Positions 1 through 16,735 of a stretch of DNA of 18,478 nucleotides are shown piece by piece. The translations under genes were made by a program, and so were the position numbers. Source of the DNA: a virus. Its lineage: Duplodnaviria; Heunggongvirae; Uroviricota; Caudoviricetes. The stretch spans positions 1 through 18,478 of IMG/VR virus record IMGVR_UViG_2802429220_000018. One strand, 5' to 3'. The notes under the pieces are model-generated. The model did no database searches. It was not told the origin of the DNA and saw nothing but the letters and a program-made list of their open reading frames with translations. Numbering within the stretch: position 1 is the first letter of the stretch; every line of letters starts with the position of its first letter.

Positions 1-339
1 CGGGAAATTGAGGCATGGCGCGACAGTCAGGAAAACGTTGAGTTTATTTTCACGTTTGATGGCCGTCGTTTTGATGGTGGAAAAACCTCGCAGTCACGCC
101 TTGCCCCCGTGGTTGCAGCAGCACAGGCCGGACTGCTTCCGGATGGTTTTTTCTGGACTGATGCGGATAATAACAACGTCGTACTGACCAGGGAGAAACT
201 TATTGCGCTGAACGATGCCATGATGGTGGCCATGGTGGCGGAGGGCTTTAAAATCCACGAACGCCAGCGCGAGATGAAAGAGCAACTTTCCCTGCTGTCC
301 ACACTGAGCGATATAAGAGCGTTAACGCCCGGTTATTAA
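1..339 (+). CDS. 3' end of a 5'-truncated ORF (112 codons in window) of unknown function; does not match any lambda head or tail protein I recognise
   Basis: Frame 1 is open from base 1 to TAA at 337-339 (...FFWTDADNNNVVLTREKLIALNDAMMVAMVAEGFKIHERQREMKEQLSLLSTLSDIRALTPGY). The ORF track starts it at 109 only because the window cuts the 5' end. Coding-like composition; no family assignment possible by eye. Confidence 0.4.
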   Translation, partial: REIEAWRDSQENVEFIFTFDGRRFDGGKTSQSRLAPVVAAAQAGLLPDGFFWTDADNNNVVLTREKLIALNDAMMVAMVAEGFKIHERQREMKEQLSLLSTLSDIRALTPGY

Positions 340-362
340 GTAATCATTTTATATAGTTTATA

Positions 363-388
363 ACGATCGATACAATCGTATCGATCGT
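363..388. promoter_or_regulatory. Perfect 11-bp inverted repeat (acgatcgatac / gtatcgatcgt, 4-bp spacer) carrying two GATC Dam sites, about 75-100 bp upstream of com; candidate methylation-sensitive operator
   Basis: Read directly: arms 363-373 and 378-388 are exact reverse complements; GATC at 365-368 and 383-386, a third GATC at 458-461 abutting the com ATG. AT-rich TATA-like stretch at 345-362. In Mu, mom transcription is controlled by Dam methylation of GATC sites upstream of the promoter (OxyR binds the unmethylated sites). Confidence 0.4.
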
Positions 389-461
389 CAGTTTGCATCA
401 TCTGTGATTAAATACCCTGGCCCTCAGGGCTGTCGTATCTGGTTAATACACAGGTGGGATC

Positions 462-647
462 ATGGATGCTGTTCGTTGTAAAAACTGCAATAAATTGCTG
501 TTTAAAGGAAGTTTTAAGCATATAGAAATCAAATGCCCTCGTTGTAAACGTTACATTGTCATGTCGAGTGCCCGGGAGCATCCCACGGAGCTGTATTGTG
601 GGAAAAGAGAAGAAATCACGCATTCTTACAAAACCCTGCGTTATTGA
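462..647 (+). CDS. com: Com-like zinc-finger translational activator (Mu Com homologue), 61 aa
   Basis: ATG 462 with AGGTGG 5-6 nt upstream. Four-Cys zinc knuckle CKNC...CPRC (C6, C9, C25, C28). The string [16 protein letters not shown]...[11 protein letters not shown]...HPTE..CGKRE.ITHS matches my recollection of Mu Com closely. The 3' end overlaps the next gene as com overlaps mom in Mu. Confidence 0.75.
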
Positions 648-1314
648 ATATGAAGGCCGTATTGTCGGCTATGGTTCAAGGGAACTGCGCGTTGAAACCA
701 TATCCTGCTGGCTGGCCCGCACAATCATTCAGACAAAGCACTATTCCCGCCGTTTTGTGAATAACTCCTACCTGCATCTGGGGGTATTCAGCGGACGTGA
801 TCTGGTTGGCGTTCTCCAGTGGGGATATGCCCTTAATCCCAACTCAGGGCGTCGGGTCGTGCCAGGAACGGATAACCGGGGCTATATGGAACTGAACCGC
901 ATGTGGTTACACGACGACATGCCCCGCAACTCTGAATCACGGGCCATCAGCTACGCACTGAAAACCATCAGGTTACTGTATCCGTCAGTGGAGTGGGTTC
1001 AGTCCTTTGCAGACGAACGCTGCGGACGTGCAGGTGTTGTGTATCAGGCGTCGAATTTTGATTTTATTGGTAGCCACGAAAGCACGTTCTACGAACTGGA
1101 CGGCGAGTGGTATCACGAGATAACGATGAACGCGATTAAGCGTGGAGGACAACGAGGCGAGTATTTACGGGCTAATAAGGAGCGGGCGGTGGTACACAAA
1201 TTTAATCAGTATCGCTACATCAGATTCCTGAACAAGCGCGCAAGGAAGCGATTAAATACTAAGCTATTCAGGATTCAGCCATACCCAAAAACACGCCAGA
1301 TTAGTATCAAATAA
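598..1314 (+). CDS. mom: Mom-like DNA modification protein (Mu Mom family, acyltransferase-like adenine-modifying enzyme); start uncertain (GTG 598 preferred, TTG 556 is the longest ORF)
   Basis: The ORF overlaps the com 3' end in another frame, the Mu com-mom arrangement. The conserved core ...[24 protein letters not shown]...[26 protein letters not shown]... resembles Mu Mom as I recall it. GTG 598 has GGAG 7 nt upstream, and both lie in a potential stem (tcccac 581-586 / gtggga 598-603) that would sequester the start site. TAA at 1312-1314. Confidence 0.7.
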
Positions 1315-1326
1315 TTTTTCGTTGTG

Positions 1327-1375
1327 CCGTTTTGGGTGGTATCAAAAAAAATCCCAAACGGTATCAAATAATTTT
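1327..1375 (+). terminator. Imperfect hairpin (ccgttttggg ... cccaaacgg, 16-nt A-rich loop) followed by a T-rich tract, directly after the mom stop; possible terminator or junction structure
   Basis: Read directly: 1327-1336 pairs with 1353-1361 with one bulge, then tatcaaataatttt. Weak as an intrinsic terminator because of the long loop and short T run. Confidence 0.3.
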
Positions 1376-1386
1376 GCGCGCTTTAC

Positions 1387-1506
1387 CCGGCACTGTCAGA
1401 TTTGATCACCAGTATGGTGGCCAGTGGCTATGACTACCGGCGCGACGATGATGCGGGCCTGTGGAGTTCAGCCGATCTGACTTATGTCATTACCTATGAA
1501 ATGTGA
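1387..1506 (+). pseudogene. U: 3' remnant (about 40 codons) of lambda tail terminator gene U; the 5' two-thirds is absent
   Basis: Frame ending at TGA 1504-1506 reads ...[39 protein letters not shown], matching the C-terminus of lambda gpU (131 aa) as I recall it. Upstream in frame there is a stop at 1369-1371 and no lambda-like sequence. The remnant sits immediately before V as in lambda. Confidence 0.6.
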
Positions 1507-1513
1507 GGACGCT

Positions 1514-2254
1514 ATGCCTGTACCAAATCCAACAATGCCGGTGAAAGGTGCCGGGACCACACTGTGGGTTTATAAGGGGAACGGTGACCCTTATGCGAAC
1601 CCGCTTTCAGACGTTGACTGGTCGCGTCTGGCTAAAGTTAAAGACCTGACGCCCGGCGAACTGACCGCTGAGTCCTATGACGACAGTTATCTCGATGATG
1701 AAGATGCGGACTGGACCGCGACCGGACAGGGGCAGAAGTCAGCCGGAGATACCAGCTTCACGCTGGCGTGGATGCCCGGAGAGCAGGGGCAGCAGGCGCT
1801 GCTGGCGTGGTTTAATGAAGGTGATACCCGTGCCTATAAAATCCGCTTCCCGAACGGCACGGTCGATGTGTTCCGTGGCTGGGTCAGCAGTATCGGTAAG
1901 GCGGTGACGGCGAAGGAAGTGATTACCCGCACGGTGAAGGTCACCAATGTGGGACGCCCGTCGATGGCAGAAGATCGCAGCACGGTGACGGCGGCCACCG
2001 GCATGACGGTAACGCCAGCCAGTGCTTCCGTAGTGAAAGGGCAGAGCACCACGCTGACCGTGGCATTCCAGCCGGAAGGCGCAACCGACAAGAGCTTCCG
2101 TGCGGTGTCTGCGGATAAAACAAAAGCCACCGTGTCGGTCAGTGGTATGACCATCACCGTGAACGGCGTTGCTGCAGGCAAGGTCAACATTCCGGTCGTA
2201 TCCGGTAATGGTGAGTTTGCTGCGGTTGCAGAAATCACCGTCACCGCCAGTTAA
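1514..2254 (+). CDS. V: Major tail tube protein gpV (246 aa) with C-terminal Ig-like domain
   Basis: ATG 1514 with GAGGA 4-5 nt upstream (the track's 1484 start is an upstream in-frame extension). The sequence [22 protein letters not shown]...[16 protein letters not shown] is essentially lambda V as I recall it; length 741 bp equals lambda V. Confidence 0.95.
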
Positions 2255-2269
2255 TCCGGAGAGTCAGCG

Positions 2270-2692
2270 ATGTTCCTGAAAACCGAATCATTTGAACATA
2301 ACGGCGTGACCGTCACGCTTTCTGAACTGTCAGCCCTACAGCGTATTGAGCATCTCGCCCTGATGAAACGGCAGGCAGAACAGGCGGAGTCAGACAGCAA
2401 CCGGAAGTTTACTGTGGAAGACGCCATCAGAACCGGCGCTTTTGTGGTGGCGATGTCCCTGTGGCATAACCATCCGAAGAAGACGCAGATGCCGTCCATG
2501 AATGAAGCCGTTAAACAGATTGAGCAGGAAGTGCTTACCACCTGGCCTACAGAGGCAATTTCTCATGCTGAAAACGTGGTGTACCGGCTGTCCGGAATGT
2601 ATGAGTTTGTGGTGAATGATGCCCCTGACCAGACAGAGGACGCCGGGCCTGCAGAGCCTGTTTCTGCGGGAAAGTGTTCGACGGTGAGCTGA
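2270..2692 (+). CDS. G: Tail assembly chaperone gpG (140 aa)
   Basis: ATG 2270 with GGAGAG upstream. MFLKTESFEHNGVTVTLSELSALQRIEHLALMKRQAEQ... matches lambda G; ends TGA 2690-2692 shortly after the slippery site. Confidence 0.93.
   Translation: MFLKTESFEHNGVTVTLSELSALQRIEHLALMKRQAEQAESDSNRKFTVEDAIRTGAFVVAMSLWHNHPKKTQMPSMNEAVKQIEQEVLTTWPTEAISHAENVVYRLSGMYEFVVNDAPDQTEDAGPAEPVSAGKCSTVS
2668..2674 (+). promoter_or_regulatory. Programmed -1 ribosomal frameshift site G GGA AAG joining G to T (G-T fusion chaperone)
   Basis: Heptamer GGGAAAG at 2668-2674 is in the G zero frame (gcG GGA AAG); the -1 frame continues open into the T reading frame through 3108. This is the conserved lambda G/GT recoding site. 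Confidence 0.85.
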
Positions 2693-3108
2693 GTTTTGCC
2701 CTGAAACTGGCGCGAGAGATGGGGCGACCTGACTGGCGCGCCATGCTTGCCGGGATGTCATCCACGGAGTATGCCGACTGGCACCGCTTTTACAGTACCC
2801 ATTATTTTCATGATGTTCTGCTGGATATGCACTTTTCCGGGCTGACGTACACTGTGCTCAGCCTGTTTTTCAGCGATCCGGATATGCATCCGCTGGATTT
2901 CAGTTTGCTGAACCGGCGTGAGGATGACGAAGAGCCTGAAGATGATGTGCTGATGCAGAAAGCGGCAGGGCTTACCGGAGGCGTCCGCTTTGACCCGGAC
3001 GGAAATGAAGTTATCCCCGCTTCCCCGGATATGGCGGGCATGACGGAGGATGACGTAATGCTGATGACAGTATCAGAAGGGATCGCAGGAGGAGTCCGGT
3101 ATGGCTGA
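2674..3108 (+). CDS. T: gpT portion of the G-T tail assembly fusion protein; not independently initiated, expressed by -1 frameshift from G
   Basis: -1 frame relative to G, open 2674-3108, product ...LSFALKLAREMGRPDWRAMLAGMSSTEYADWHRFYSTHYFHDVLLDMHF... matching lambda T. The 'M' at 2674 in the track is a GTG and not a real start. Confidence 0.85.
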   Translation: MFDGELSFALKLAREMGRPDWRAMLAGMSSTEYADWHRFYSTHYFHDVLLDMHFSGLTYTVLSLFFSDPDMHPLDFSLLNRREDDEEPEDDVLMQKAAGLTGGVRFDPDGNEVIPASPDMAGMTEDDVMLMTVSEGIAGGVRYG

Positions 3109-5662
3109 ACCGGTAGGCGATCTGGTCGTTGATTTAAGTCTGGATGCGGCCAGATTTGACGAGCAGATGGCCAGAGTCAGGCGTCATTTTTCCGGTACGG
3201 AAAGTGATGCGAAAAAAACAGCGGCAGTCGTTGAACAGTCGCTGAGCCGACAGGCGCTGGCTGCACAGAAAGCGGGGATTTCCGTCGGGCAGTATAAAGC
3301 CGCCATGCGTATGCTGCCTGCACAGTTCACCGACGTGGCCACGCAGCTTGCAGGCGGGCAAAGCCCGTGGCTGATCCTGCTGCAACAGGGTGGTCAGGTT
3401 AAGGACTCCTTCGGCGGGATGATCCCCATGTTCCGGGGGCTTGCCGGTGCGATCACCCTGCCGATGGTCGGGGCCACCTCGCTGGCGGTGGCGACCGGTG
3501 CGCTGGCGTATGCCTGGTATCAGGGTAACTCAACCCTGTCCGATTTCAACAAAACGCTGGTCCTTTCCGGTAATCAGGCGGGACTGACGGCAGATCGTAT
3601 GCTGGTCCTGTCCAGAGCCGGGCAGGCTGCAGGGCTGACGTTTAACCAGACCAGCGAGTCACTCAGTGCACTGGTTAAGGCGGGGGTAAGCGGTGAGGCT
3701 CAGATTGCGTCCATCAGCCAGAGTGTGGCGCGTTTCTCCTCTGCATCCGGTGTGGAGGTGGACAAGGTCGCTGAAGCCTTCGGGAAGCTGACCACTGACC
3801 CGACGTCGGGGCTGACGGCGATGGCGCGCCAGTTCCATAACGTGACGGCGGAGCAGATTGCGTATGTTGCTCAGTTGCAGCGTTCCGGCGATGAAGCCGG
3901 GGCATTGCAGGCGGCGAACGAGGCCGCAACGAAAGGGTTTGATGACCAGACCCGACGCTTGAAAGAGAACATGGGCACGCTGGAAACCTGGGCAGACAGG
4001 ACAGCACGGGCATTCAAATCCATGTGGGATGCGGTGCTGGATATTGGTCGTCCTGATACCGCTCAGGAGATGCTGATTAAGGCAGAGGCTGCGTTTAAGA
4101 AAGCGGACGACATCTGGAATCTGCGCAAGGATGATTATTTTGTTAACGATGAAGCGCGGGCGCGTTACTGGGATGATCGTGAAAAGGCCCGTCTTGCGCT
4201 TGAAGCCGCCCGAAAGAAGGCTGAACAGCAGAGTCAACAGGACAAAAATGCGCAGCAGCAGAGCGATACCGAAGCGTCACGGCTGAAATATACCGAAGAG
4301 GCGCAGAAGGCTTACGAACGGCTGCAGACGCCGCTGGAGAAATATACCGCCCGTCAGGAAGAACTGAACAAGGCACTGAAAGACGGGAAAATCCTGCAGG
4401 CAGATTACAACACGCTGATGGCGGCGGCGAAAAAGGATTATGAAGCGACGCTGAAAAAGCCGAAACAGTCCGGCGTGAAGGTGTCTGCGGGCGATCGTCA
4501 GGAAGACAGTGCTCATGCTGCCCTGCTGACGCTTCAGGCAGAACTCCGGACACTGGAGAAGCATGCCGGAGCGAATGAGAAAATCAGCCAGCAGCGCCGG
4601 GATTTGTGGAAGGCAGAAAGTCAGTTCGCGGTACTGGAGGAGGCGGCACAACGTCGCCAGCTGTCCGCACAGGAGAAATCCCTGCTGGCGCATAAAGACG
4701 AGACGCTGGAGTACAAACGCCAGCTGGCTGCACTTGGCGATAAGGTCACGTATCAGGAGCACCTGAATGCGCTGGCGCAGCAGGCGGATAAATTCGCACA
4801 GCAACAACGGGCAAAACGGGCAGCCATTGATGCGAAAAACCGGGGGCTGACTGACCGGCAGGCAGCGCGGGACGCCACGGAACAGCGCCTGAAGGAACAG
4901 TATGGCGATAATCCGCTGGCGCTGAATAGCGTCATGTCAGAGCAGAAAAAGACCTGGGCGGCTGAAGACCAGCTTCGTGGGAGCTGGATGGCAGGCCTCA
5001 GGTCAGGCTGGAGTGAGTGGGAAGAGAGCGCCACGGACAGTATGTCGCAGGTTAAAAGTGCAGCCACGCAGACCTTTGATGGTATTGCACAGAATATGGC
5101 GGCGATGCTGACCGGCAGTGAACAGAACTGGCGCAGCTTCACCCGTTCCGTGCTGTCCATGATGACAGAAATTCTGCTTAAGCAGGCAATGGTGGGGATT
5201 GTCGGGAGTATCGGCAGCGCCATTGGCGGTGCTGCCAGTGGTGGCGCATCAGCGTCAGGCGGTACAGCCATTCAGGCAGCTGCGGCGAAACTCCATTTTG
5301 CGACCGGAGGATTTACGGGAACCGGCGGCAAATATGAGCCAGCGGGGATTGTTCACCGTGGTGAATTTGTCTTCACCAAGGAGGCAACCAGCCGGATTGG
5401 CGTGGGGAATCTTTACCGGCTGATGCGCGGCTATGCCACCGGCGGTTATGTCGGTACACCGGGCAGCATGGCGGACAGTCGGTCGCAGGCGTCCGGGACG
5501 TTTGAGCAGAATAACCATGTGGTGATTAACAACGACGGCACGAACGGTCAGATAGGGCCACAGGCGCTGAAGGCTGTTTATGACGTAGCCCGTAAGGCGG
5601 CAATGGATGTTGTGACCGGGCAGATGCGTGATGGTGGTCTGTTCTCCGGAGGTGGACGATGA
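3101..5662 (+). CDS. H: Tail tape measure protein gpH (853 aa)
   Basis: ATG 3101 overlapping the end of T. MAEPVGDLVVDLSLDAARFDEQMARVRRHF..., length 853 aa, coiled-coil-rich middle and glycine-rich C-terminus, as in lambda H. Confidence 0.95.
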   Translation: MAEPVGDLVVDLSLDAARFDEQMARVRRHFSGTESDAKKTAAVVEQSLSRQALAAQKAGISVGQYKAAMRMLPAQFTDVATQLAGGQSPWLILLQQGGQVKDSFGGMIPMFRGLAGAITLPMVGATSLAVATGALAYAWYQGNSTLSDFNKTLVLSGNQAGLTADRMLVLSRAGQAAGLTFNQTSESLSALVKAGVSGEAQIASISQSVARFSSASGVEVDKVAEAFGKLTTDPTSGLTAMARQFHNVTAEQIAYVAQLQRSGDEAGALQAANEAATKGFDDQTRRLKENMGTLETWADRTARAFKSMWDAVLDIGRPDTAQEMLIKAEAAFKKADDIWNLRKDDYFVNDEARARYWDDREKARLALEAARKKAEQQSQQDKNAQQQSDTEASRLKYTEEAQKAYERLQTPLEKYTARQEELNKALKDGKILQADYNTLMAAAKKDYEATLKKPKQSGVKVSAGDRQEDSAHAALLTLQAELRTLEKHAGANEKISQQRRDLWKAESQFAVLEEAAQRRQLSAQEKSLLAHKDETLEYKRQLAALGDKVTYQEHLNALAQQADKFAQQQRAKRAAIDAKNRGLTDRQAARDATEQRLKEQYGDNPLALNSVMSEQKKTWAAEDQLRGSWMAGLRSGWSEWEESATDSMSQVKSAATQTFDGIAQNMAAMLTGSEQNWRSFTRSVLSMMTEILLKQAMVGIVGSIGSAIGGAASGGASASGGTAIQAAAAKLHFATGGFTGTGGKYEPAGIVHRGEFVFTKEATSRIGVGNLYRLMRGYATGGYVGTPGSMADSRSQASGTFEQNNHVVINNDGTNGQIGPQALKAVYDVARKAAMDVVTGQMRDGGLFSGGGR

Positions 5663-5988
5663 AAACCTTCCGCTGGAAAGTGAAACCCGGTATGGATGTG
5701 GCTTCGGCCCCTTCTGTAAGAAAGGTGCGCTTTGGTGATGGCTATTCCCAGCGAGCGCCTGCCGGGCTGAATGCCAACCTGAAAACGTACAGCGTGACGC
5801 TTTCTGTCCCCCGTGAGGAGGCCACGGTACTGGAGTCGTTTCTGGAAGAGCACGGGGGCTGGAAAGCCTTTCTGTGGACGCCGCCTTATGAGTGGCGGCA
5901 GATAAAGGTGACCTGCGCAAAATGGTCGTCGCGGGTCAGTATGCTGCGTGTTGAGTTCAGCGCAGAGTTTGAACAGGTGGTGAACTGA
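5659..5988 (+). CDS. M: Tail tip assembly protein gpM (109 aa)
   Basis: ATG 5659 overlaps the H stop (ATGA). MKTFRWKVKPGMDVASAPSVRKVRFGDGYSQRA... matches lambda M. Confidence 0.93.
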   Translation: MKTFRWKVKPGMDVASAPSVRKVRFGDGYSQRAPAGLNANLKTYSVTLSVPREEATVLESFLEEHGGWKAFLWTPPYEWRQIKVTCAKWSSRVSMLRVEFSAEFEQVVN

Positions 5989-6686
5989 TGCAGGATATCC
6001 GGCAGGAAACACTGAATGAATGCACCCGTGCGGAGCAGTCGGCCAGCGTGGTGCTCTGGGAAATCGACCTGACAGAGGTCGGTGGAGAACGTTATTTTTT
6101 CTGTAATGAGCAGAACGAAAAAGGTGAGCCGGTCACCTGGCAGGGGCGACAGTATCAGCCGTATCCCATTCAGGGGAGTGGTTTTGAACTGAATGGCAAA
6201 GGCACCAGTACGCGCCCCACGCTGACGGTTTCTAACCTGTACGGTATGGTCACCGGGATGGCGGAAGATCTGCAGAGTCTGGTCGGCGGAACGGTGGTCC
6301 GGCGTAAGGTTTACGCCCGTTTTCTGGATGCGGTGAACTTCGTCAACGGAAACAGTGACGCCGATCCGGAGCAGGAGGTGATCAGCCGTTGGCGCATTGA
6401 GCAGTGCAGCGAACTGAGCGCGGTGAGTGCCTCTTTTGTACTGTCCACGCCGACGGAAACGGACGGCGCTGTTTTTCCGGGACGTATCATGCTGGCCAAC
6501 ACCTGCACCTGGACCTATCGCGGCGATGAGTGCGGTTATCACGGTCCGGCGGTCGCGGATGAATATGACCAGCCAACGTCCGATATCACGAAGGATAAAT
6601 GCAGCAAATGCCTGAGCGGTTGTAAGTTCCGCAATAACGTCGGCAACTTTGGCGGCTTCCTTTCCATTAACAAACTTTCGCAGTAA
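5988..6686 (+). CDS. L: Tail tip protein gpL (232 aa)
   Basis: ATG 5988 overlaps the M stop (TGATG). MQDIRQETLNECTRAEQSASVVLWEIDLTEVGGERYFFCNE... matches lambda L, including the C-terminal Cys cluster. Confidence 0.93.
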   Translation: MQDIRQETLNECTRAEQSASVVLWEIDLTEVGGERYFFCNEQNEKGEPVTWQGRQYQPYPIQGSGFELNGKGTSTRPTLTVSNLYGMVTGMAEDLQSLVGGTVVRRKVYARFLDAVNFVNGNSDADPEQEVISRWRIEQCSELSAVSASFVLSTPTETDGAVFPGRIMLANTCTWTYRGDECGYHGPAVADEYDQPTSDITKDKCSKCLSGCKFRNNVGNFGGFLSINKLSQ

Positions 6687-6691
6687 ATCCC

Positions 6692-7435
6692 ATGACACAG
6701 GCAGAATCAGCGATTCTGGCGCACGCCCGGCGATGTGCGCCAGCGGAGTCGTGCGGCTTCGTGGTAAGCACGCCGGAGGGGGAAAGATATTTCCCCTGCG
6801 TGAATATCTCCGGTGAGCCGGAGGCGTATTTCCGTATGTCGCCGGAAGACTGGCTGCAGGCAGAAATGCAGGGTGAGATTGTGGCGCTGGTCCACAGCCA
6901 CCCCGGTGGTCTGCCCTGGCTGAGTGAGGCCGACCGGCGGCTGCAGGTGCAGAGTGATTTGCCGTGGTGGCTGGTCTGCCGGGGGACGATTCATAAGTTC
7001 CGCTGTGTGCCGCATCTCACCGGGCGGCGCTTTGAGCACGGGGTGACGGACTGTTACACGCTGTTCCGGGATGCTTATCATCTGGCGGGGATTGAGATGC
7101 CGGATTTTCATCGCGAGGATGACTGGTGGCGTCACGGTCAGAATCTCTATCTGGATAATCTGGAGGCCACAGGGCTGTATCAGGTGCCGTTGTCATCAGC
7201 ACAACCGGGCGATGTGCTGCTGTGCTGTTTTGGTTCATCGGTGCCGAATCATGCCGCCATTTACTGTGGTGATGGCGAGCTGCTGCACCATATTCCTGAA
7301 CAACTGAGCAAACGAGAGAGGTATACCGACAAATGGCAGCGACGCACACACTCCCTCTGGCGTCACCGGGCATGGCACGCATCTGCCTTTACGGGGATTT
7401 GCAACGATTTGGCCGCCGCATCGATCTTCGTGTGA
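6692..7435 (+). CDS. K: Tail tip assembly protein gpK (247 aa; JAB/MPN plus NlpC/P60-like)
   Basis: ATG 6692. MTQAESAILAHARRCAPAESCGFVVSTPEGERYF...HSHPGG... matches lambda K; the 3' end overlaps the start of I in another frame, as in lambda. Confidence 0.9.
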   Translation: MTQAESAILAHARRCAPAESCGFVVSTPEGERYFPCVNISGEPEAYFRMSPEDWLQAEMQGEIVALVHSHPGGLPWLSEADRRLQVQSDLPWWLVCRGTIHKFRCVPHLTGRRFEHGVTDCYTLFRDAYHLAGIEMPDFHREDDWWRHGQNLYLDNLEATGLYQVPLSSAQPGDVLLCCFGSSVPNHAAIYCGDGELLHHIPEQLSKRERYTDKWQRRTHSLWRHRAWHASAFTGICNDLAAASIFV

Positions 7436-8004
7436 AAACGGGGGCTGAAGCTATCCGGGCGCTGGCCACACAGCTCCCGGCGTTTCGTCAGAAACTGAGC
7501 GACGGCTGGTATCAGGTACGGATTGCCGGGCGGGATGTCAGCACGTCCGGATTAACGGCGCAGTTACATGAGACTCTGCCTGATGGCGCTGTGATTCATA
7601 TTGTTCCCAGAGTCGCCGGGGCCAAGTCAGGTGGTGTATTCCAGATTGTCCTGGGAGCTGCCGCCATTGCCGGATCATTCTTTACTGCCGGAGCCACCCT
7701 TGCAGCATGGGGGGCAGCCATTGGGGCCGGTGGTATGACCGGCATCCTGTTTTCTCTCGGTGCCAGTATGGTGCTCGGTGGTGTGGCGCAGATGCTGGCA
7801 CCGAAAGCCAGAACTCCCCGTACACAGACAACGGATAACGGCAAACAGAACACCTATTTTTCCTCACTGGATAACATGGTTGCTCAGGGCAATGTTTTGC
7901 CTGTTCTGTACGGTGAAATGCGTGTGGGGTCGCGGGTGGTTTCTCAGGAGATCAGCACGGCAGACGAAGGGGACGGTGGTCAGGTTGTGGTGATTGGTCG
8001 CTGA
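7333..8004 (+). CDS. I: Tail tip assembly protein gpI (223 aa)
   Basis: ATG 7333 inside the K 3' end. MAATHTLPLASPGMARICLYGDLQRFGRRIDLRVKTGAEAIRALATQ... matches lambda I; ubiquitin-like N-terminus and Gly/Ala-rich hydrophobic segment. Confidence 0.9.
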   Translation: MAATHTLPLASPGMARICLYGDLQRFGRRIDLRVKTGAEAIRALATQLPAFRQKLSDGWYQVRIAGRDVSTSGLTAQLHETLPDGAVIHIVPRVAGAKSGGVFQIVLGAAAIAGSFFTAGATLAAWGAAIGAGGMTGILFSLGASMVLGGVAQMLAPKARTPRTQTTDNGKQNTYFSSLDNMVAQGNVLPVLYGEMRVGSRVVSQEISTADEGDGGQVVVIGR

Positions 8005-8064
8005 TGCAAAATGTTTTATGTGAAACCGCCTCCGGGCGGTTTTGTCGTTTATGGAGCATGACGA

Positions 8065-11000
8065 ATGGGTAAAGGCAGCAGTAAGGGGCATACCCCGCGC
8101 GAAGCGAAGGATAACCTGAAATCCACGCAGCTGCTGAGTGTGATCGATGCCATCAGCGAAGGGCCGATTGAAGGTCCGGTGGATGGATTAAAAAGCGTGC
8201 TGCTGAACAGTACACCGGTGCTGGACAGTGAGGGGAATACCAACATCTCCGGTGTCACGGTGGTGTTCCGGGCAGGTGAGCAGGAGCAGACACCGCCGGA
8301 GGGATTTGAATCCTCCGGTTCCGAGACGGTGCTGGGTACGGAAGTGAAATACGACACGCCGATCACCCGGACCATCACGTCTGCAAACATCGACCGTCTG
8401 CGCTTTACCTTCGGTGTGCGGGCACTGGTGGAAACCACCTCAAAGGGTGACCGGAATCCGTCGGAAGTCCGCCTGCTGGTTCAGATACAACGTAACGGTG
8501 GCTGGGTGACAGAAAAAGACATCACCATTAAGGGCAAAACCACGTCGCAGTATCTGGCCTCGGTGGTGGTGGATAACCTGCCGCCGCGACCGTTCAATAT
8601 CCGGATGCGCAGGATGACACCGGACAGCACCACAGACCAGCTGCAGAACAAAACGCTCTGGTCGTCATACACCGAAATCATCGATGTGAAACAGTGCTAC
8701 CCGAACACGGCACTGGTCGGCGTGCAGGTGGATTCGGAGCAGTTCGGCAGCCAGCAGGTGAGCCGTAATTATCATCTTCGCGGGCGCATTCTGCAGGTGC
8801 CGTCGAACTATAACCCGCAGACGCGGCAATACAGCGGTATCTGGGACGGGACGTTTAAACCGGCATACAGCAACAACATGGCCTGGTGTCTGTGGGATAT
8901 GCTGACCCATCCGCGCTACGGCATGGGGAAGCGTCTCGGTGCGGCGGATGTGGACAAATGGGCGCTGTATGTCATCGGCCAGAATTGCGACCAGTCGGTG
9001 CCGGATGGCTTTGGTGGCACGGAGCCGCGCATCACCTGTAACGCTTACCTGACCACACAGCGCAAGGCGTGGGATGTGCTCAGTGATTTCTGCTCGGCGA
9101 TGCGCTGTATGCCGGTATGGAACGGGCAGACGCTGACGTTCGTGCAGGACCGACAGTCGGATAAGGTGTGGACCTATAACCGCAGTAATGTGGTGATGCC
9201 GGATGATGGCGCGCCGTTCCGCTACAGCTTCAGCGCCCTGAAGGACCGCCATAATGCCGTTGAGGTGAACTGGATTGACCCGAACAACGGCTGGGAGACG
9301 GCGACAGAGCTTGTTGAAGATACGCAGGCCATTGCCCGTTACGGTCGTAATGTCACGAAGATGGATGCCTTTGGTTGTACCAGTCGGGGGCAGGCACACC
9401 GAGCCGGGCTGTGGCTGATTAAAACGGAACTGCTGGAAACGCAGACCGTGGATTTCAGCGTGGGCGCAGAAGGGCTTCGCCATGTGCCGGGCGATGTTAT
9501 TGAAATCTGCGATGATGACTATGCCGGTATCAGCATCGGTGGTCGCGTGCTGGCGGTGAACAGCCAGACCCGGACGCTGACGCTCGACCGTGAAATCACG
9601 CTGCCATCCTCCGGCACCACGCTGATAAGCCTGGTTGACGGTGAGGGTAATCCGGTCAGCGTGGAGGTCCAGTCCGTCACCGACGGCGTGAAGGTGAAAG
9701 TGAGCCGTGTTCCTGACGGCGTTGCTGAATACAGCGTGTGGGGGCTGAAGTTGCCGACGTTGCGCCAGCGCCTGTTCCGCTGTGTGAGTATCCGTGAGAA
9801 CGACGACGGCACGTATGCCATCACTGCCGTGCAGCATGTGCCGGAAAAAGAGGCCATCGTGGATAACGGGGCGCACTTTGACGGCGACCAGAGCGGCACG
9901 GTGAATGGTGTCACGCCGCCAGCGGTGCAGCACCTGACCGCAGAAGTCACCGCAGACAGCGGGGAATACCAGGTGCTGGCGCGCTGGGACACGCCGAAGG
10001 TGGTGAAGGGCGTGAGCTTTATGCTTCGCCTGACCGTGGCAGCGGATGACGGCAGTGAGCGGCTGGTCAGCACGGCCCGGACGACGGAAACCACATACCG
10101 CTTCACGCAACTGGCTTTGGGAAACTACAGGCTGACAGTCCGGGCGGCAAATGCCTGGGGGCAGCAGGGCGATCCGGCGTCGGTATCGTTCCGGATTGCC
10201 GCACCGGCAGCACCGTCGCGGATTGAGCTGACGCCGGGCTATTTTCAGATAACCGCAACGCCGCATCTTGCCGTTTATGATCCGACGGTACAGTTTGAGT
10301 TCTGGTTCTCGGAAAAGCGGATTACCGATATCAGGCAGGTTGAAACCACAGCCCGCTATCTTGGCACGGGGCTGTACTGGATAGCCGCCAGTATCAATAT
10401 CAAACCGGGCCATGATTATTATTTTTACGTTCGCAGTGTGAACACCGTTGGCAAATCGGCATTTGTGGAGGCCGTCGGTCGGGCGAGCGATGATGCGGAA
10501 GGTTACCTGGATTTTTTCAAAGGCAAGATAACCGAATCCCATCTCGGCAAGGAGCTGCTGGAAAAAGTCGAGCTCACGGAGGATAACGCCAGCAGACTGG
10601 AGGAGTTTTCGAAAGAGTGGAAGGACGCCAACGATAAGTGGAATGCCATGTGGGCTGTCAAAATTGAGCAGACCAAAGACGGCAAACATTATGTCGCGGG
10701 TATTGGCCTCAGCATGGAGGACACGGAGGAAGGCAAACTGAGCCAGTTTCTGGTTGCCGCTAACCGTATCGCATTTATTGACCCGGCAAACGGGAATGAA
10801 ACGCCGATGTTTGTGGCGCAGGGCAATCAGATATTCATGAACGACGTGTTCCTGAAGCGCCTGACGGCCCCCACCATTACCAGCGGTGGCAGTCCTCCGG
10901 TATTTTCCCTGACATCAGACGGAAAGCTGACCGCTAAAAATGCGGATATCAGTGGCAGTGTGAATGCGAACGCCGGGACGCTCAACAATGTCACGGTAAA

Positions 11001-11478
11001 TGAAGACTGTACGATTAAGGGCATGCTGGAGGCGACTCAGGTCAGAGGTGACTTCGTTAAAGCTGTATCCAAATCATTCCCGAAACAGGCTGGTACGTGG
11101 GGTAACACGGAAACACCAAACGGGACGGTTACAGTCACCATCAGTGATGATCATAACTTTGACCGTCAAATCATTATTCCGCCCATTATCTTTAACGGAA
11201 TAGCGTATAGCGATCCGGGAAGTGGTAATAACCCGGGAGGTACAAGATACACGGGTTATGGTTTTGAAGTTCGCAAAAACGGTGTATTAATCGCATCCAG
11301 AGAAACTAAAGGGGCCATTCCCGGTAGCTACAGTGCGGTTATTGATATGCCGAGTGGCAGGGGAAGCGTCACTCTGGAGTTTAAGGTTTTCCATAAAGGC
11401 AATCAGTGGGCAGGTAATATCACCGACTGTACGGTGATTGTGACCAAAAAAGCCGCTTCCGGCATCAGTATTCGTTGA
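8065..11478 (+). CDS. J: Central tail fibre / tip attachment protein gpJ (1137 aa)
   Basis: ATG 8065 with GGAG upstream. [42 protein letters not shown]... is the lambda J N-terminus. Length 1137 aa against about 1132 for lambda J as I recall. Confidence 0.95.
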
Positions 11479-11499
11479 AATTGTTATAACCCATATAAG

Positions 11500-11524
11500 G
11501 GCACCAGAAATGGTGCCTTTTTTA
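11500..11524 (+). terminator. Rho-independent terminator after J
   Basis: ggcacca-gaaa-tggtgcc stem-loop (11500-11517) followed by TTTTTTATT. Confidence 0.75.
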
Positions 11525-11547
11525 TTGCAGAAAAGCGAGAGGTAATT

Positions 11548-12147
11548 ATGCGTAAACTTTATGCCGCCATTTTTTCCGCAGCCATCTGTCTGGCCGTATC
11601 CGGTGCGCCTGCATGGGCATCTGAACATCAGTCCACGCTGAGCGCGGGGTATCTTCATGCCTCGACGAACGTTCCCGGCAGCGATGATCTGAACGGGATT
11701 AACGTGAAATACCGTTATGAGTTTACGGATACGCTGGGGATGGTGACGTCATTCAGCTATGCAGGAGACAAGAATCGCCAGCTTACCCGTTACAGCGATA
11801 CCCGCTGGCATGAAGATTCCGTGCGTAACCGCTGGTTCAGCGTGATGGCGGGGCCGTCTGTGCGCGTGAATGAATGGTTCAGCGCGTATGCGATGGCGGG
11901 TATGGCTTACAGCCGTGTTTCGACGTTCTCCGGGGATTATCTCCGCGTAACTGACAACAAGGGGAAAACGCACGATGTGCTGACCGGAAGTGATGGCGGT
12001 CGCCACAGCAACACGTCTCTGGCGTGGGGGGCTGGCGTGCAGTTTAACCCGACCGAATCCGTGGCCATTGACCTTGCTTATGAAGGTTCCGGCAGTGGCG
12101 ACTGGCGCACTGACGGTTTCATCGTGGGTGTCGGTTATAAATTCTGA
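11548..12147 (+). CDS. lom: Lom / Ail family outer-membrane beta-barrel protein (199 aa, signal peptide)
   Basis: ATG 11548 with GAGAGG about 6 nt upstream. N-terminal signal peptide [24 protein letters not shown]; C-terminus ...[26 protein letters not shown] is the Ail/Lom/PagC signature ending in an aromatic residue; same position as lambda lom. Confidence 0.9.
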
Positions 12148-12173
12148 TTAGCCAGGTAACACAGTGTTATGAC

Positions 12174-12200
12174 AGCCCGTCGGTTCAGGCGGGCTTTTTT
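12174..12200 (+). terminator. Rho-independent terminator after lom
   Basis: agcccg-loop-cgggct stem (12174-12195) followed by TTTTTT (12195-12200). Confidence 0.7.
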
Positions 12201-12211
12201 GTGGAGTGGAT

Positions 12212-14587
12212 ATGGCAGCAGTAAAAATCTCAGGTGTGCTGAAAGATGGTGCGGGAAAACCAATACAGAACTGCACTATTCAACTGAAGGCAAAGCGTAA
12301 CAGCACCACGGTACTGGTGAACACGGTGGCCTCTGAAAATCCGGATGAAGCCGGGCGTTACAGCATGGACGTTGAGTATGGCCAGTACAGCGTTATCCTG
12401 CTGGTTGAAGGTTTTCCGCCTTCACATGCCGGAACCATTACCGTCTATGAAGGTTCCAGACCAGGTACGCTGAATGATTTTCTCGGTGCCATGACGGAAG
12501 ATGATGTCATGCCGGAGGCATTGCGTCGTTTTGAGGCAATGGTGGAAGAAGCGGCACACAACGCTGAAGCCGCCTCTCAGAGCGCAGCGGCGGCAAAGAA
12601 ATCCGAAGCTGCTGCGGCATCATCGAAGAACGCGGCGAAAAGCTCAGAAACGAATGCAGCTAACAGCGCACAGGCGGCAGCGGCCTCACAGACTGCATCG
12701 GCAAACTCCGCGACAGCAGCCCAAAAATCAGAAACCAACGCGAAAAATAGCGAAACAGCCGCAAAGACGAGCGAAACCAACGCAAAGTCCAGCCAGACGT
12801 CAGCGAAAACAAGCGAAACGAATGCCAAAACCAGTGAAACTGCGGCGAAAAGCAGTCAGGCTGCAGCAGCCGAAAGCGAGAGTGCTGCAGCCGGTTCTGC
12901 GACTTCAGCAGCTGGATCAGCAACTGCTGCGGCTAACAGCCAGAAAGCAGCGAAGACGAGCGAAACTAACGCAAAGTCCAGCCAGACGGCAGCGAAGACC
13001 AGCGAAACGAATGCCAAAGCCAGCGAAACTGCGGCGAAAAACAGTCAGGATGCAGCGGCCCAAAGCGAGAGTGCCGCAGCTGGTTCTGCAAGTGCGGCGG
13101 CTTCTTCTGCCACTGCATCAGCCAACAGTCAAAAAGCTGCAAAAACCAGTGAAACCAACGCAAAGGCGAGCGAGACTGCGGCGGCTAACTCGGCGAAAGC
13201 ATCCGCTGCAAGCCAGACGGCTGCAAAAGCAAGTGAAGACGCAGCCAGAGAGTATGCAAGCCAGGCTGCGGAGCCGTATAAACAAGTTTTGCAGCCGCTT
13301 CCCGATGTGTGGATACCGTTTAACGATTCACTGGATATGATTACGGGCTTTTCGCCGTCATATAAAAAGATTGTTATTGGTGATGATGAAATAACGATGC
13401 CTGGCGATAAGGTTGTAAAGTTTAAACGCGCATCGAAAGCAACCTATATTAATAAATCTGGTGTGCTGACAGAGGCTGCCATTGACGAGCCACGATTTGA
13501 ACGTGATGGCCTGCTTATTGAGGGGCAAAGAACAAACTACATGCTCAATTCGGAAAACCCTGCCAGTTGGGGGCGATCGTCAAATATGGATGTTCCCGAA
13601 ACCGGGAAGGATAGTTTTGGTTTTACCTATGGAAAGTTTGTCTGTAACGATTCTCTGATTGGGCAAACCTCAGCCATTAATATGGCATCAATTGCTGCAA
13701 CAAAGTCAGTTGATGTCTCAGGCGATAATAAATACGTGACAACCTCATGTCGTTTTAAAACAGAACTGCAGGTAAGGTTGCGTATCCGGTTTGATAAATA
13801 TGACGGTAGCGCAACAACTTTTCTTGGTGATGCGTATATTGATACACAAACGCTTGAAATTAATATGACAGGCGGCGCTGCCTCAAGGATTACAGCGAGA
13901 GTCAGAAAGGACGAAGCTACCGGATGGATTTTTGCAGAGGCAACAATTCAGGCAATTGATGGGGAGTTAAAAATAGGTTCTCAGATACAGTATTCTCCTA
14001 AGCAGGGCGGGGCAACCGTATCTGGTGACTATATTTATCTGGCCACCCCACAAGTAGAAAATGGGCCTTGTGTATCATCTTTTATTATATCAGGAACGAC
14101 GGCGGCGACCCGCGCAAGCGATATAGTTACAGTTCCCATTAAGAATAATCTTTATAATCTTCCTTTTACGGTTCTTTGTGAGGTACATAAGAACTGGTAT
14201 AAAACGCCAAATGCAGCGCCGCGTGTTTTTGACACCGGCGGTCATCAAACCGGAGCGGCAATTATTCTTGGATTCGGTTCTTCAGCAGATTACGACGGAT
14301 TTCCTTATTGCGATATTGGAGGAGCTAACAGACGGGTAAACGAAAACGCATTGCTTGAAAAAATGGTTATGGGGATGCGTGTAAAGTCAGATCAGTCTAC
14401 GTGCTCAGTAAGTAACGGGCGTATATCCAGCCAAACAAAAACCACATGGTCCTATATTCAGAACACCGCAATTATCCGTATTGGAGGCCAAACTACAGCC
14501 GGGTTACGTCATTTATTTGGTCATGTCAGGAATTTCAGAATATGGCACAAGGCATTGACTGATGCTCAGGTGGGGGAGTCAATCTAA
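12212..14587 (+). CDS. stf: Side tail fibre protein (Stf-like, 791 aa from ATG 12212): lambda-like N-terminus, Ala/Ser/Thr/Lys-rich repeat shaft, non-lambda C-terminal domain
   Basis: ATG 12212 with GGAG about 6 nt upstream (the track start 12206 is a GTG two codons earlier). The N-terminus MAAVKISGVLKDGAGKPIQNCTIQLKAKRNSTT... matches lambda Stf as I recall it. The central region is built of KTSETNAKSSQTAAK-type repeats; the C-terminal approx 440 aa is not like lambda Stf, but I did not compare the C-terminus carefully. Confidence 0.85.
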   Translation: MAAVKISGVLKDGAGKPIQNCTIQLKAKRNSTTVLVNTVASENPDEAGRYSMDVEYGQYSVILLVEGFPPSHAGTITVYEGSRPGTLNDFLGAMTEDDVMPEALRRFEAMVEEAAHNAEAASQSAAAAKKSEAAAASSKNAAKSSETNAANSAQAAAASQTASANSATAAQKSETNAKNSETAAKTSETNAKSSQTSAKTSETNAKTSETAAKSSQAAAAESESAAAGSATSAAGSATAAANSQKAAKTSETNAKSSQTAAKTSETNAKASETAAKNSQDAAAQSESAAAGSASAAASSATASANSQKAAKTSETNAKASETAAANSAKASAASQTAAKASEDAAREYASQAAEPYKQVLQPLPDVWIPFNDSLDMITGFSPSYKKIVIGDDEITMPGDKVVKFKRASKATYINKSGVLTEAAIDEPRFERDGLLIEGQRTNYMLNSENPASWGRSSNMDVPETGKDSFGFTYGKFVCNDSLIGQTSAINMASIAATKSVDVSGDNKYVTTSCRFKTELQVRLRIRFDKYDGSATTFLGDAYIDTQTLEINMTGGAASRITARVRKDEATGWIFAEATIQAIDGELKIGSQIQYSPKQGGATVSGDYIYLATPQVENGPCVSSFIISGTTAATRASDIVTVPIKNNLYNLPFTVLCEVHKNWYKTPNAAPRVFDTGGHQTGAAIILGFGSSADYDGFPYCDIGGANRRVNENALLEKMVMGMRVKSDQSTCSVSNGRISSQTKTTWSYIQNTAIIRIGGQTTAGLRHLFGHVRNFRIWHKALTDAQVGESI
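12764..13250 (+). repeat. In-frame tandem repeat of a 189-bp unit (about 2.5 copies) inside stf, with more degenerate 21-bp sub-repeats extending upstream to about 12590
   Basis: Unit starts aagacgagcgaaaccaacgcaaagtccagccagacg at 12764 and 12953, with a diverged third copy at 13142; this gives two near-identical 63-aa protein blocks. Confidence 0.8.
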
Positions 14588-14868
14588 TGAAAGATTTAAC
14601 ACTCAAATTTGCCGACAGGGCCGACTTTTCGGCCTTTATGGAGAGTACTGGCTATTATGATGACGAGTCGATGCAGGATGATATTCTTATTGACGTGATA
14701 GGTAACGTGTACAAAGAAACCGGAGAACTGAATGAAGATGGCGAACCGGTATGTGTTAAGGAAGACGGATATTTTGTAAACGTGCGCATCATTAATGATG
14801 TGAAAACACCATCAATATTCGATGAATACGTGGTTGCTGTTGAGCATCAACTTCGTGGCTGGATGTGA
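14587..14868 (+). CDS. Hypothetical small acidic protein (93 aa), translationally coupled to stf; candidate fibre chaperone or adaptor
   Basis: ATG 14587 overlaps the stf stop (TAATG). D/E-rich, no hydrophobic segment. It occupies the position where lambda carries tfa but does not resemble lambda Tfa. Confidence 0.55.
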   Translation: MKDLTLKFADRADFSAFMESTGYYDDESMQDDILIDVIGNVYKETGELNEDGEPVCVKEDGYFVNVRIINDVKTPSIFDEYVVAVEHQLRGWM

Positions 14869-14877
14869 GGAAGAATA

Positions 14878-15918
14878 ATGGCTACATCGACAGTAATTCC
14901 TGATGACATCAAAACGCTAAAATCCGATGTTAGTAAACTAAAAAACGATCAAGGAAGCTACGCAACAAAATCATATGTAGACAGCAAAGATGAAACCGTT
15001 GGTGACTGGTCTGCTTCATGGTATCAGCAGGTATTGCCAACTAGCGGAGCTATATTTGGGAGAAAACTCCGCTCAACTCACAGGACGGCAGGTGTTGAGG
15101 ATGCGTATTGCGAACTATACCTCAAAAAATGGATAGACAGTCCAGGTAACGCAATGGCGCGCCTTAACCTGAACGATAACGGGACAAACATTTGCTGGGA
15201 CTTTACCAACCTTTATGGCGGTACGATGATTTTTCCCGGTGACAGCGGATACCTCAAAATGGGTGACTGCCTTATGTCATACAGCAAGCGTGGAAGTAAC
15301 GCGCTTATTAAATTTGATTACACCGACACATTACAGATCAAATATGCTAATCATGGGTCAACCATGACATTAAACACACAGGGAACCGCTCACGCTGGCG
15401 TAACAACTAGACTATGGGGTAATTCTAGCCGTCCGGTTGTTTATGAAGTTGGCGTAGATGAGGCTCTGTATATGTTCTACGCACAGAAAACTACCAGCAA
15501 TACCTACGAATTAACGGTTAACGGCGCGTGCAATGCAAGTGCATTTAATCAAGGCTCCGACCGGGATCTGAAAGACAATATTCAGGTGATCGATAATGCA
15601 ATCGACCGCATTCGTAAAATGAACGGCTATACATACACGCTTAAAGAAAACGGTATGCCTTACGCTGGTGTTATTGCACAAGAAACCCTGGAAGCCATCC
15701 CCGAAGCCGTAGGGTCTATGATGAAATATCCAGACGGCGGGAGTGGATTAGATGGAGAAGAAGGTGAACGGTATTACACTGTAGATTATTCTGGTGTTAC
15801 TGGCTTGCTTGTTCAGGTAGCCAGAGAGTCAGACGACAGGATAACAGCACTGGAAGAAGAAAACGCAGAATTAAGACAAAGATTATCTGCAATTGAGGCG
15901 GCGCTTGCGTCTAAATAA
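14878..15918 (+). CDS. Tail fibre / tailspike-like protein (346 aa) with C-terminal intramolecular chaperone autoproteolytic domain (Peptidase_S74 type, about residues 227-346)
   Basis: ATG 14878 with GAGGAAG upstream. The C-terminal motif SDRDLKDNIQVIDNAIDRIRKMNGYTYTLKE....GVIAQETLEAIPEAV fits the conserved SDxxxKxNI ... GxxYxxK ... GVIAQEV..P signature of the endosialidase / T5 L-shaped-fibre C-terminal chaperone, followed by a coiled-coil-like tail. Confidence 0.7.
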   Translation: MATSTVIPDDIKTLKSDVSKLKNDQGSYATKSYVDSKDETVGDWSASWYQQVLPTSGAIFGRKLRSTHRTAGVEDAYCELYLKKWIDSPGNAMARLNLNDNGTNICWDFTNLYGGTMIFPGDSGYLKMGDCLMSYSKRGSNALIKFDYTDTLQIKYANHGSTMTLNTQGTAHAGVTTRLWGNSSRPVVYEVGVDEALYMFYAQKTTSNTYELTVNGACNASAFNQGSDRDLKDNIQVIDNAIDRIRKMNGYTYTLKENGMPYAGVIAQETLEAIPEAVGSMMKYPDGGSGLDGEEGERYYTVDYSGVTGLLVQVARESDDRITALEEENAELRQRLSAIEAALASK

Positions 15919-15922
15919 TATT

Positions 15923-15946
15923 AAGGGGCCGAGCGCCCCGTTTTAT
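15923..15946 (+). terminator. Weak candidate terminator hairpin after the fibre-like gene
   Basis: ggggc-cgagc-gcccc stem-loop (15925-15939) followed by GTTTTATT; short stem and interrupted T tract. Confidence 0.35.
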
Positions 15947-15960
15947 TGGGTAGGATGAAA

Positions 15961-16254
15961 ATGGATATAACACCTTTCCTTCATGCTCTTTGTGCTGTGG
16001 CTGCGCAGCTACTGATTGGTCTTTTTACCGGGAACTGGGCTTACGGAGCGATAGCCGGTTGTACGTTCTTCATTGCGCGTGAACACACCCAGGCAGAATA
16101 TCGCTGGATTGAAATGTTCGGGCATGGCAAGCGTATGAATATGCCGTGGTGGGGCGGTTTTGATCCACGCGCGTGGGATGTGGCAAGCATGATGGATTTT
16201 GCTGTGCCGGTGGTGGCGTGTCTGCTGGTCTGGCGGTTAGTTAATCGTGGGTGA
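15961..16254 (+). CDS. Hypothetical small membrane protein (97 aa from ATG 15961; two predicted hydrophobic segments)
   Basis: ATG 15961 with AGGA 5 nt upstream (the track's 15946 start is a TTG; ATG 15955 is also possible). Hydrophobic stretches FLHALCAVAAQLLIGLFTG...AIAGCTFFIA and MMDFAVPVVACLLVWRLV. No family recognised. Confidence 0.5.
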   Translation: MDITPFLHALCAVAAQLLIGLFTGNWAYGAIAGCTFFIAREHTQAEYRWIEMFGHGKRMNMPWWGGFDPRAWDVASMMDFAVPVVACLLVWRLVNRG

Positions 16255-16700
16255 AAAAGCATGTTTAGTGTACTTTCCCGAAACTGATAGTAAGTGGCGA
16301 GATTAATTACCTGCTTCAGACTGAATGATTTTTTGCAAGCGCCACAGAAGTAATAGGGGTGAGTGAAAAAATATTATATATTAATGAATTGCGTTATTGC
16401 ATCATCAGCTCAAAATGATGAATAACTAGAATTCCTGTCATAGCATTAATGGCTGAATTGGTGGGATGATATATCAGATAGAGTATCAATAAAAGCTGGA
16501 ATGCATGTGGATTCAAATGGTTTTTGGCTAGATGATACTTATATCATATATTATATGAAGTATTTTAATGTTGCTCTGGAGGGAAATAGTGAGAGATGCA
16601 CGGCGAAGCACGTCTTGAACTAAATATACACAAGTAAATCATGCTTTCGCCGCTGTATTAGAGCTTTGTTTCAGATTTGTTAATCGCCAGGTATTACCCC

Positions 16701-16722
16701 ACCAAAAAAATGATTTTTTGGT
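16701..16722. terminator. Perfect 9-bp A/T-rich hairpin (accaaaaaa-atga-ttttttggt) 14 bp past the KAP gene stop; candidate bidirectional terminator
   Basis: 16701-16709 is the exact reverse complement of 16714-16722. The U-rich arm could serve as the 3' tract; weak because of the AT-only stem. Confidence 0.3.
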
Positions 16723-16735
16723 AAAGTGGATGTTC

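Follow-up and report, generated by a model that had tools for sequence, protein, structure and literature searches.

The com-mom operon of phage Mu (genes 54 and 55; PDB 8bv8) is the last operon before the right end of the Mu genome, and its com gene overlaps the start of mom. Passages of PMC7261163 and PMC6483171 describe a modification of adenine by Mom that shields phage DNA from restriction, and PMC6483171 also sets out the Com motif CC(N)2-3GAG together with a translation-inhibition model. The closest isolated relatives of the element described here are the Yersinia phages vB_YpM_5 and vB_YpM_6 (Muvirus), which have been described as Mu-like (PMC10434027). Their nucleotide identity to our element is about 89-90% across com-mom and the early region. 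Related Mu-like prophages are found in Escherichia coli TD225-C4, E300082, FDAARGOS_943, and STEC388. Insertions of Mu into lambda (lambda::Mu) have long been known from laboratory genetics.

We analyzed an 18,478-nucleotide stretch of DNA, IMG/VR record IMGVR_UViG_2802429220_000018, which we refer to as the window. It opens with com and mom in the Mu gene order and continues into the late genes of a lambda-like prophage. We conclude, with a probability of about 0.96, that a Mu-like transposable myovirus prophage is inserted in gene U of a resident lambda-like prophage. The window shows only the last 1385 nt of this element, comprising the end of a DUF4376 gene, com, mom, and attR, followed by the rest of U and by genes V to J. 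The nested prophage is carried by a small group of Escherichia isolates. Like a lambda::Mu insertion, it is consistent with quasi-random insertion into a lambda prophage gene that inactivates the gene and leaves a short target duplication. It differs in being a natural event in wild Escherichia isolates, in having a transposase that is only distantly related to MuA, and in having a duplication of 4 bp, not 5 bp. A shallow search of the literature returned no report of this nested arrangement. The sequence-only reading had recognized Com and Mom homologs in the Mu arrangement, which holds, but it had suggested that com-mom may be a mosaic segment or moron of a lambdoid phage, which is not supported, as the element terminates at position 1385 and U is interrupted there. 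The features are listed in Table 1.

Table 1. Features of the window and its junctions. Positions refer to the window unless a contig or relative is named; a slash marks the point of insertion.
Feature	Position or sequence	Strand	Basis and remarks
3' part of DUF4376 gene, Mu-like tail-fiber module	1-339	+	Pfam DUF4376, E 1e-17; truncated where the draft contig starts
Regulatory region 5' of com-mom	340-461	+	Alignment with Mu 35599-35959
com	462-647	+	61-aa zinc-finger protein, CxxC...CxxC; match to PF10122 (Zn_ribbon_Com)
Com target motif and hairpin	571-603	+	Sequence conserved with Mu; stem from RNA folding
mom	598-1314	+	238 aa, GTG start as in Mu; match to PF25680
Right end (attR) of the Mu-like element	1290-1385	+	Three direct GTATCAAAWAA repeats; terminus ...GCGCGCTTTA at 1385
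Left junction	...GATATCCCG / TATGAAGAGG		Contig PTRY01000076.1; element begins TATGAAG
Right junction	...GCGCGCTTTA / CCCGGCACTG		Window 1385/1386; element ends CTTTA
Intact U across the target site	GATATCCCGGCACTG		Uninterrupted relative
CCCG, right-hand copy of the 4-bp target-site duplication	1386-1389		Both junctions compared with intact U
3' remnant of lambda tail-terminator gene U	1386-1506	+	121 nt, corresponding to nt 276-396 of 396; identical to U of 19KM1831 and PhiR63_1
Lambda major tail protein V	1514-2254	+	PF16461, E 2.6e-70; first intact gene of the V-G-T-H-M-L-K-I-J block
Side tail-fiber gene	12206-14587		phage_tail_N domain
Small ORFs 3' of the side tail-fiber gene	14587-14868, 15946-16254		No family match
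Fiber gene	14878-15918		Endosialidase-chaperone domain
KAP-family P-loop NTPase	16736-18478	-	580 aa; PF07693, E 8e-7

Com, Mom, and their control region

Both products exceed the curated thresholds of the Com and Mom families in Pfam profile searches. Com matches PF10122 with an E value of 2.2e-7 (30.6 bits; cut-off, 22.9). It shares 72% identity with Mu Com, and its four zinc cysteines (C6, C9, C25, and C28) all align with those of the Mu protein. The mom frame, taken as 556/598-1314, matches PF25680 (Mom) over the entire profile (positions 1-202 of 202; E 4e-76, 255.6 bits; cut-off, 27.1), and its uninterrupted ORF is 95% identical to Mu Mom in an ungapped alignment of 241 aa. Translation from the GTG at 598 yields a protein that aligns residue by residue with the Mu Mom chain 8bv8_A (E 1.7e-153; residues 1-231 on 2-232), so the start that had been proposed for mom is correct. 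The com and mom genes occupy different frames and share 50 nt (598-647). No NCBIfam model scored above threshold for Com or Mom, and no PADLOC model matched either protein.

These results support the two products as true Com and Mom homologs in the Mu translational-control arrangement, and they bear out both the four-Cys, Com-like protein and the overlapping Mom-like ORF that had been recognized from the sequence. Mom is a predicted adenine methylcarbamoylase, and Com is, by analogy with Mu, a predicted activator of mom translation. Some details differ from Mu. The final seven codons of mom lie within the first terminal repeat of the element, giving Mom seven additional C-terminal residues. 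The gene upstream of com belongs to the DUF4376 fiber module, in contrast to gin in Mu and the hin invertase in vB_YpM_5. The same order, DUF4376-com-mom, follows the sheath, tube, DNA-circularization, baseplate, and tail-fiber genes in E. coli 06-00048.

The control region is conserved unevenly. Upstream of com, two of Mu's three GATC sites are kept (365 and 383), whereas the promoter-proximal sequence has diverged from Mu and carries a 12-nt gap in the DNA alignment. The roles of Dam, OxyR, and C at mom are known from Mu. Around the mom start, the DNA alignment with Mu is nearly identical. As in Mu, a CC(N)2-3GAG motif (571-578) lies just 5' of a predicted hairpin that contains the mom GTG. 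The predicted stem pairs 581-588 with 596-603, burying the GTG (598-600) and covering part of the GGAG Shine-Dalgarno sequence (587-590). RNA folding of positions 560-625 produces the expected hairpin with an energy no better than that of shuffled sequence (z = 0.52), and the case for the hairpin rests on its conservation with Mu, not on fold energy.

If the element behaves as Mu does, com-mom would be its own last late operon. Com would bind the small CC(N)2-3GAG hairpin that immediately precedes the translation-inhibition stem, and this binding would free the mom GTG and Shine-Dalgarno sequence for translation. Mom would then turn a fraction of adenines into N6-methylcarbamoyl-adenine, and the modified adenines would shield the DNA of the Mu-like phage against restriction.

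A transposon terminus at position 1385 divides gene U

Similarity searches of the window reveal a sharp break in homology at 1385/1386. Positions 1-1385 match the right ends of Mu-like myovirus prophages of E. coli, with several matches ending exactly at 1385, while all matches to lambda-type phages and prophages begin at 1386 or 1387. Homology to Mu and SfMu ends earlier, at 1289, and homology to D108 ends at 1318; the attR downstream of 1289 is unrelated to that of Mu. The vB_YpM_5 lineage and the E. coli prophages share the sequence exactly through 1385. The GTATCAAAWAA repeats lie on the plus strand at 1304, 1339, and 1361 (span, 1304-1371), three exact copies where 0.01 would be expected, and inverted copies lie on the minus strand at the left end of the element. 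They are putative transposase-binding sites. In other genomes, the right terminus ...ATTTTGCGCGCTTTA (window 1371-1385) adjoins at least 10 different flanks, including type VI secretion system (T6SS) genes, a PTS operon, fimbrial genes, and a Rac-like prophage. Given these many different flanks and the terminal repeat array, with its inverted copies at the left end, window position 1385 is the exact terminus of a transposon.

One of these flanks is itself a lambdoid prophage. A Mu-like right end adjoins a Rac-like prophage carrying ydaT, cro, cI, dicB, and an integrase in ABABOW010000077.1 and JAOWSI010000070.1 (about 1400-9200). Among about 10 distinct sites seen, this makes two lambdoid prophages in which phages of this type have inserted independently.

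On the other side of the break, the sequence is that of a lambda-like prophage. It shares 100% identity with PhiR63_1 over 1386-2300 and 98.4% with E. coli 19KM1831 over 1386-18478. In 19KM1831, which has intact Z and U genes, the counterpart of window position 1386 is nucleotide 276 of gene U (396 nt). The 3' end of U had been overlooked in the sequence-only reading, while the lambda-like V-G-T-H-M-L-K-I-J block that it described downstream is confirmed by gene calls and family matches.

The insertion of a transposable element in U predicts a reciprocal junction, in which the 5' part of U runs into the left end of the element. We predicted the resulting fusion protein beforehand in four versions, combining a 4-bp or a 5-bp duplication with two left-end variants. 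Only one of the four was present in a collection of 15 billion proteins; this version, U(1-93)+YEEVNHLILLKNPGGKWIKRDLMG, exactly matches WP_445236458.1, which is annotated as a tail terminator protein in Escherichia sp. MOD1-EC4560. The 5-bp-duplication fusion was absent from the same collection. The contigs encoding WP_445236458.1 carry Rz-bor-Nu1-A-W-B-C-D-E-FI-FII-Z-U' and then the Mu-like genes c (on the opposite strand), ner, transposase, B, kil, gam, gemA, mor, and lysozyme.

Both junctions occur in a single draft assembly, GCA_002965565.1, on separate contigs. PTRY01000076.1 carries the left junction, and PTRY01000027.1 is the contig of the window, which it matches with 0 mismatches over 10.6 kb, starting 2 nt before window position 1. 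Joining the left part of U (the first 279 nt) to the right part and removing one CCCG restores U with 0 mismatches in 396 nt. Extended to 10.3 kb, the reconstruction follows the uninterrupted prophage collinearly; the alignment has 86 mismatches and is free of indels. The left junction is present in the NCBI assemblies GCA_002965565.1 and GCA_002965585.1 and in Logan assemblies of SRA runs; the right junction is present in GCA_002965565.1 and GCA_015337505.1, and further samples carry the same contig. Exact 30-nt scans for the junctions in viral and genome contig collections returned none, the source being a draft NCBI assembly outside both. Z remains whole; U has been cut in two rather than replaced. 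The earlier placement of com-mom in the position of Z and U fails, since Z and the first 279 nt of U lie at the other end of the element in the same assembly.

Several other features of the lambda-like prophage were observed in the window. The side tail-fiber gene contains repeats at 12690-13183, in which 21-nt units are nested within 189-nt tandem repeats. The KAP-family NTPase is encoded at the far end of the prophage, a site that in relatives lies between the tail-fiber genes and thrS. It matches the PADLOC candidate defense family PDC-S49 (E 7e-16) and may be a prophage-borne defense gene.

The Mu-like lineage and its insertions

The contigs of the left junction encode c in reverse orientation, ner, a 695-aa PF09299 (Mu-transpos_C) protein, and a 317-aa PF09077 (Phage-MuB_C) protein. 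The transposase shares 23% identity with MuA, and its D, D, and E positions align; the B protein shares 41% identity with MuB. Mom and Com are much closer to Mu (95% and 72%, respectively), and this disparity suggests that the com-mom cassette (window 472-1289) was recently exchanged between Mu-like lineages. Four complete relatives carry c, ner, a Mu-type transposase, a MuB-like AAA ATPase, gam, mor, lysis, head, sheath, baseplate, and fiber genes, com, and mom. Together with vB_YpM_5 and vB_YpM_6, the related E. coli prophages share with our element the right terminus up to window position 1385, the left terminus TATGAAGAGG, and the GTATCAAA repeats. They differ from it in that the insertion described here lies inside another prophage. 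In the vB_YpM_5 record, 78 nt of other DNA lie between the right end ...CTTTA and the left end TATGAAGAGG....

In four E. coli genomes, the relatives interrupt rlmB, a DUF945 gene, mhpA, and sslE. With the insertion in U included, all five insertions examined are flanked by 4-bp target duplications (GATA, GGCA, TGTT, TGCG, and CCCG), and the termini in this lineage are 5'-TA...TA-3'. A 5-bp duplication with the termini ATG...TTA was also considered; it fits two insertions and fails for three (sslE, the DUF945 gene, and lambda U). The element thus departs from the canonical Mu geometry of TG...CA termini and a 5-bp duplication. The TA termini and 4-bp duplications are evidence that the element is not Mu itself; they do not count against a Mu-like mechanism. 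A shallow literature search returned no report of 4-bp duplications in Mu-like phages, and these termini and duplications may interest transposition specialists.

With a draft contig that opens about 460 nt before com, the window displays just a small part of the element, and the remainder of the Mu-like phage was out of sight for the sequence-only reading. All 10 retrieved draft contigs that encode this exact Com protein open within the DUF4376 gene, at most about 600 nt upstream of com. This shared start is a systematic assembly break, presumably at a repeated or invertible fiber segment. Because short-read assemblies evidently break in the fiber region, com-mom appears in the window to be the lambdoid prophage's own. 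The genes are real and their arrangement is already known; the apparent novelty comes from the point at which the contig happens to start.

Alternative readings and consequences of the nesting

We weighed the nested prophage against three other readings. That a lambdoid phage gained com-mom as an anti-restriction moron or mosaic segment replacing Z and U, and now owns the module, is what the window taken alone would suggest, with com-mom directly upstream of V, neither Z nor a full U between them, and no Mu-like structural gene except the DUF4376 fragment. We consider this highly improbable, as the homology breaks precisely where a transposable element, found at many other sites, terminates (1385), Z and the 5' part of U are joined to the left end of that element in the same assembly, and U is split with a target duplication rather than deleted, so that removal of the element restores it exactly. 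The nearest lambdoid relatives, a comparison that the sequence-only reading had itself proposed, keep an intact Z-U-V, and com-mom adjoins V in none of 5426 complete E. coli genomes and in no phage record. A lambdoid phage without Z and most of U, moreover, cannot build tails. The absence of the com-mom/V junction from complete genomes could point to an assembly artifact, a chimeric short-read join of two unrelated prophages, and the draft source, with a contig that starts just upstream of com in a region where all 10 Com contigs break and which is hard to assemble, would fit such a join. Against this, the join falls exactly at the terminus of the element and not in a repeat, it has a reciprocal partner with a matching 4-bp duplication and a perfectly restored U, and each junction recurs in a second NCBI assembly as well as in further samples or Logan assemblies. 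The misassembly that had been offered as an alternative is contradicted by these observations, and we give it hardly any weight.

A different question is whether a genuine insertion has left a Mu-like element that has since decayed into an internally deleted relic, with com-mom an orphan that is no longer expressed in a phage cycle. Between the two contigs, 2-5 kb of the tail-fiber region is unread, the segment upstream of com (DUF4376 and no invertase) is unlike those of Mu and vB_YpM_5 (gin or hin), and the related prophage of STEC388 has several frameshifts and internal stops. The contig PTRP01000035.1, however, is 41.7 kb long and has room for about 30.5 kb of the element after the left junction; we estimate completeness from this length plus the 1.4 kb in the window, compared with about 34 kb in related prophages. 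Every gene read within the first 10 kb is intact, as are com, mom, and the terminal repeats, and Mom is nearly identical to the active Mu enzyme. A relic is therefore unlikely.

The Mu-like prophage and the lambda late operon point in the same direction, with U' followed by ner-A-B and, at the other end, com-mom followed by V. Q-modified RNA polymerase is terminator-resistant. It is conceivable, though we think it unlikely, that the nesting is functional, such that Q-antiterminated lambda late transcription would read from U' into the Mu-like early operon, antisense to the repressor gene, and on to com-mom. This idea draws only on the gene orientation and the known terminator resistance of the polymerase. 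If true, it would couple the lambdoid induction signal to the Mu-like phage, and Mom would be expressed without its usual activator.

Recognizing the nested prophage removes a false lead, as there is no lambdoid com-mom anti-restriction cassette at this locus. A contig that runs from one prophage into another can mimic a new mosaic, and a sharp homology break at a transposon terminus is a warning sign. The composite of the two prophages is about 80 kb, which exceeds the packaging size of lambda. Because U is split and the composite is this large, the lambda-like prophage would be crippled, having lost its tail terminator and become too large for packaging. The lambda-like prophage of this Escherichia lineage is thus almost certainly defective for tail assembly and packaging, while the Mom protection system of the Mu-like element inserted in it is probably still working.
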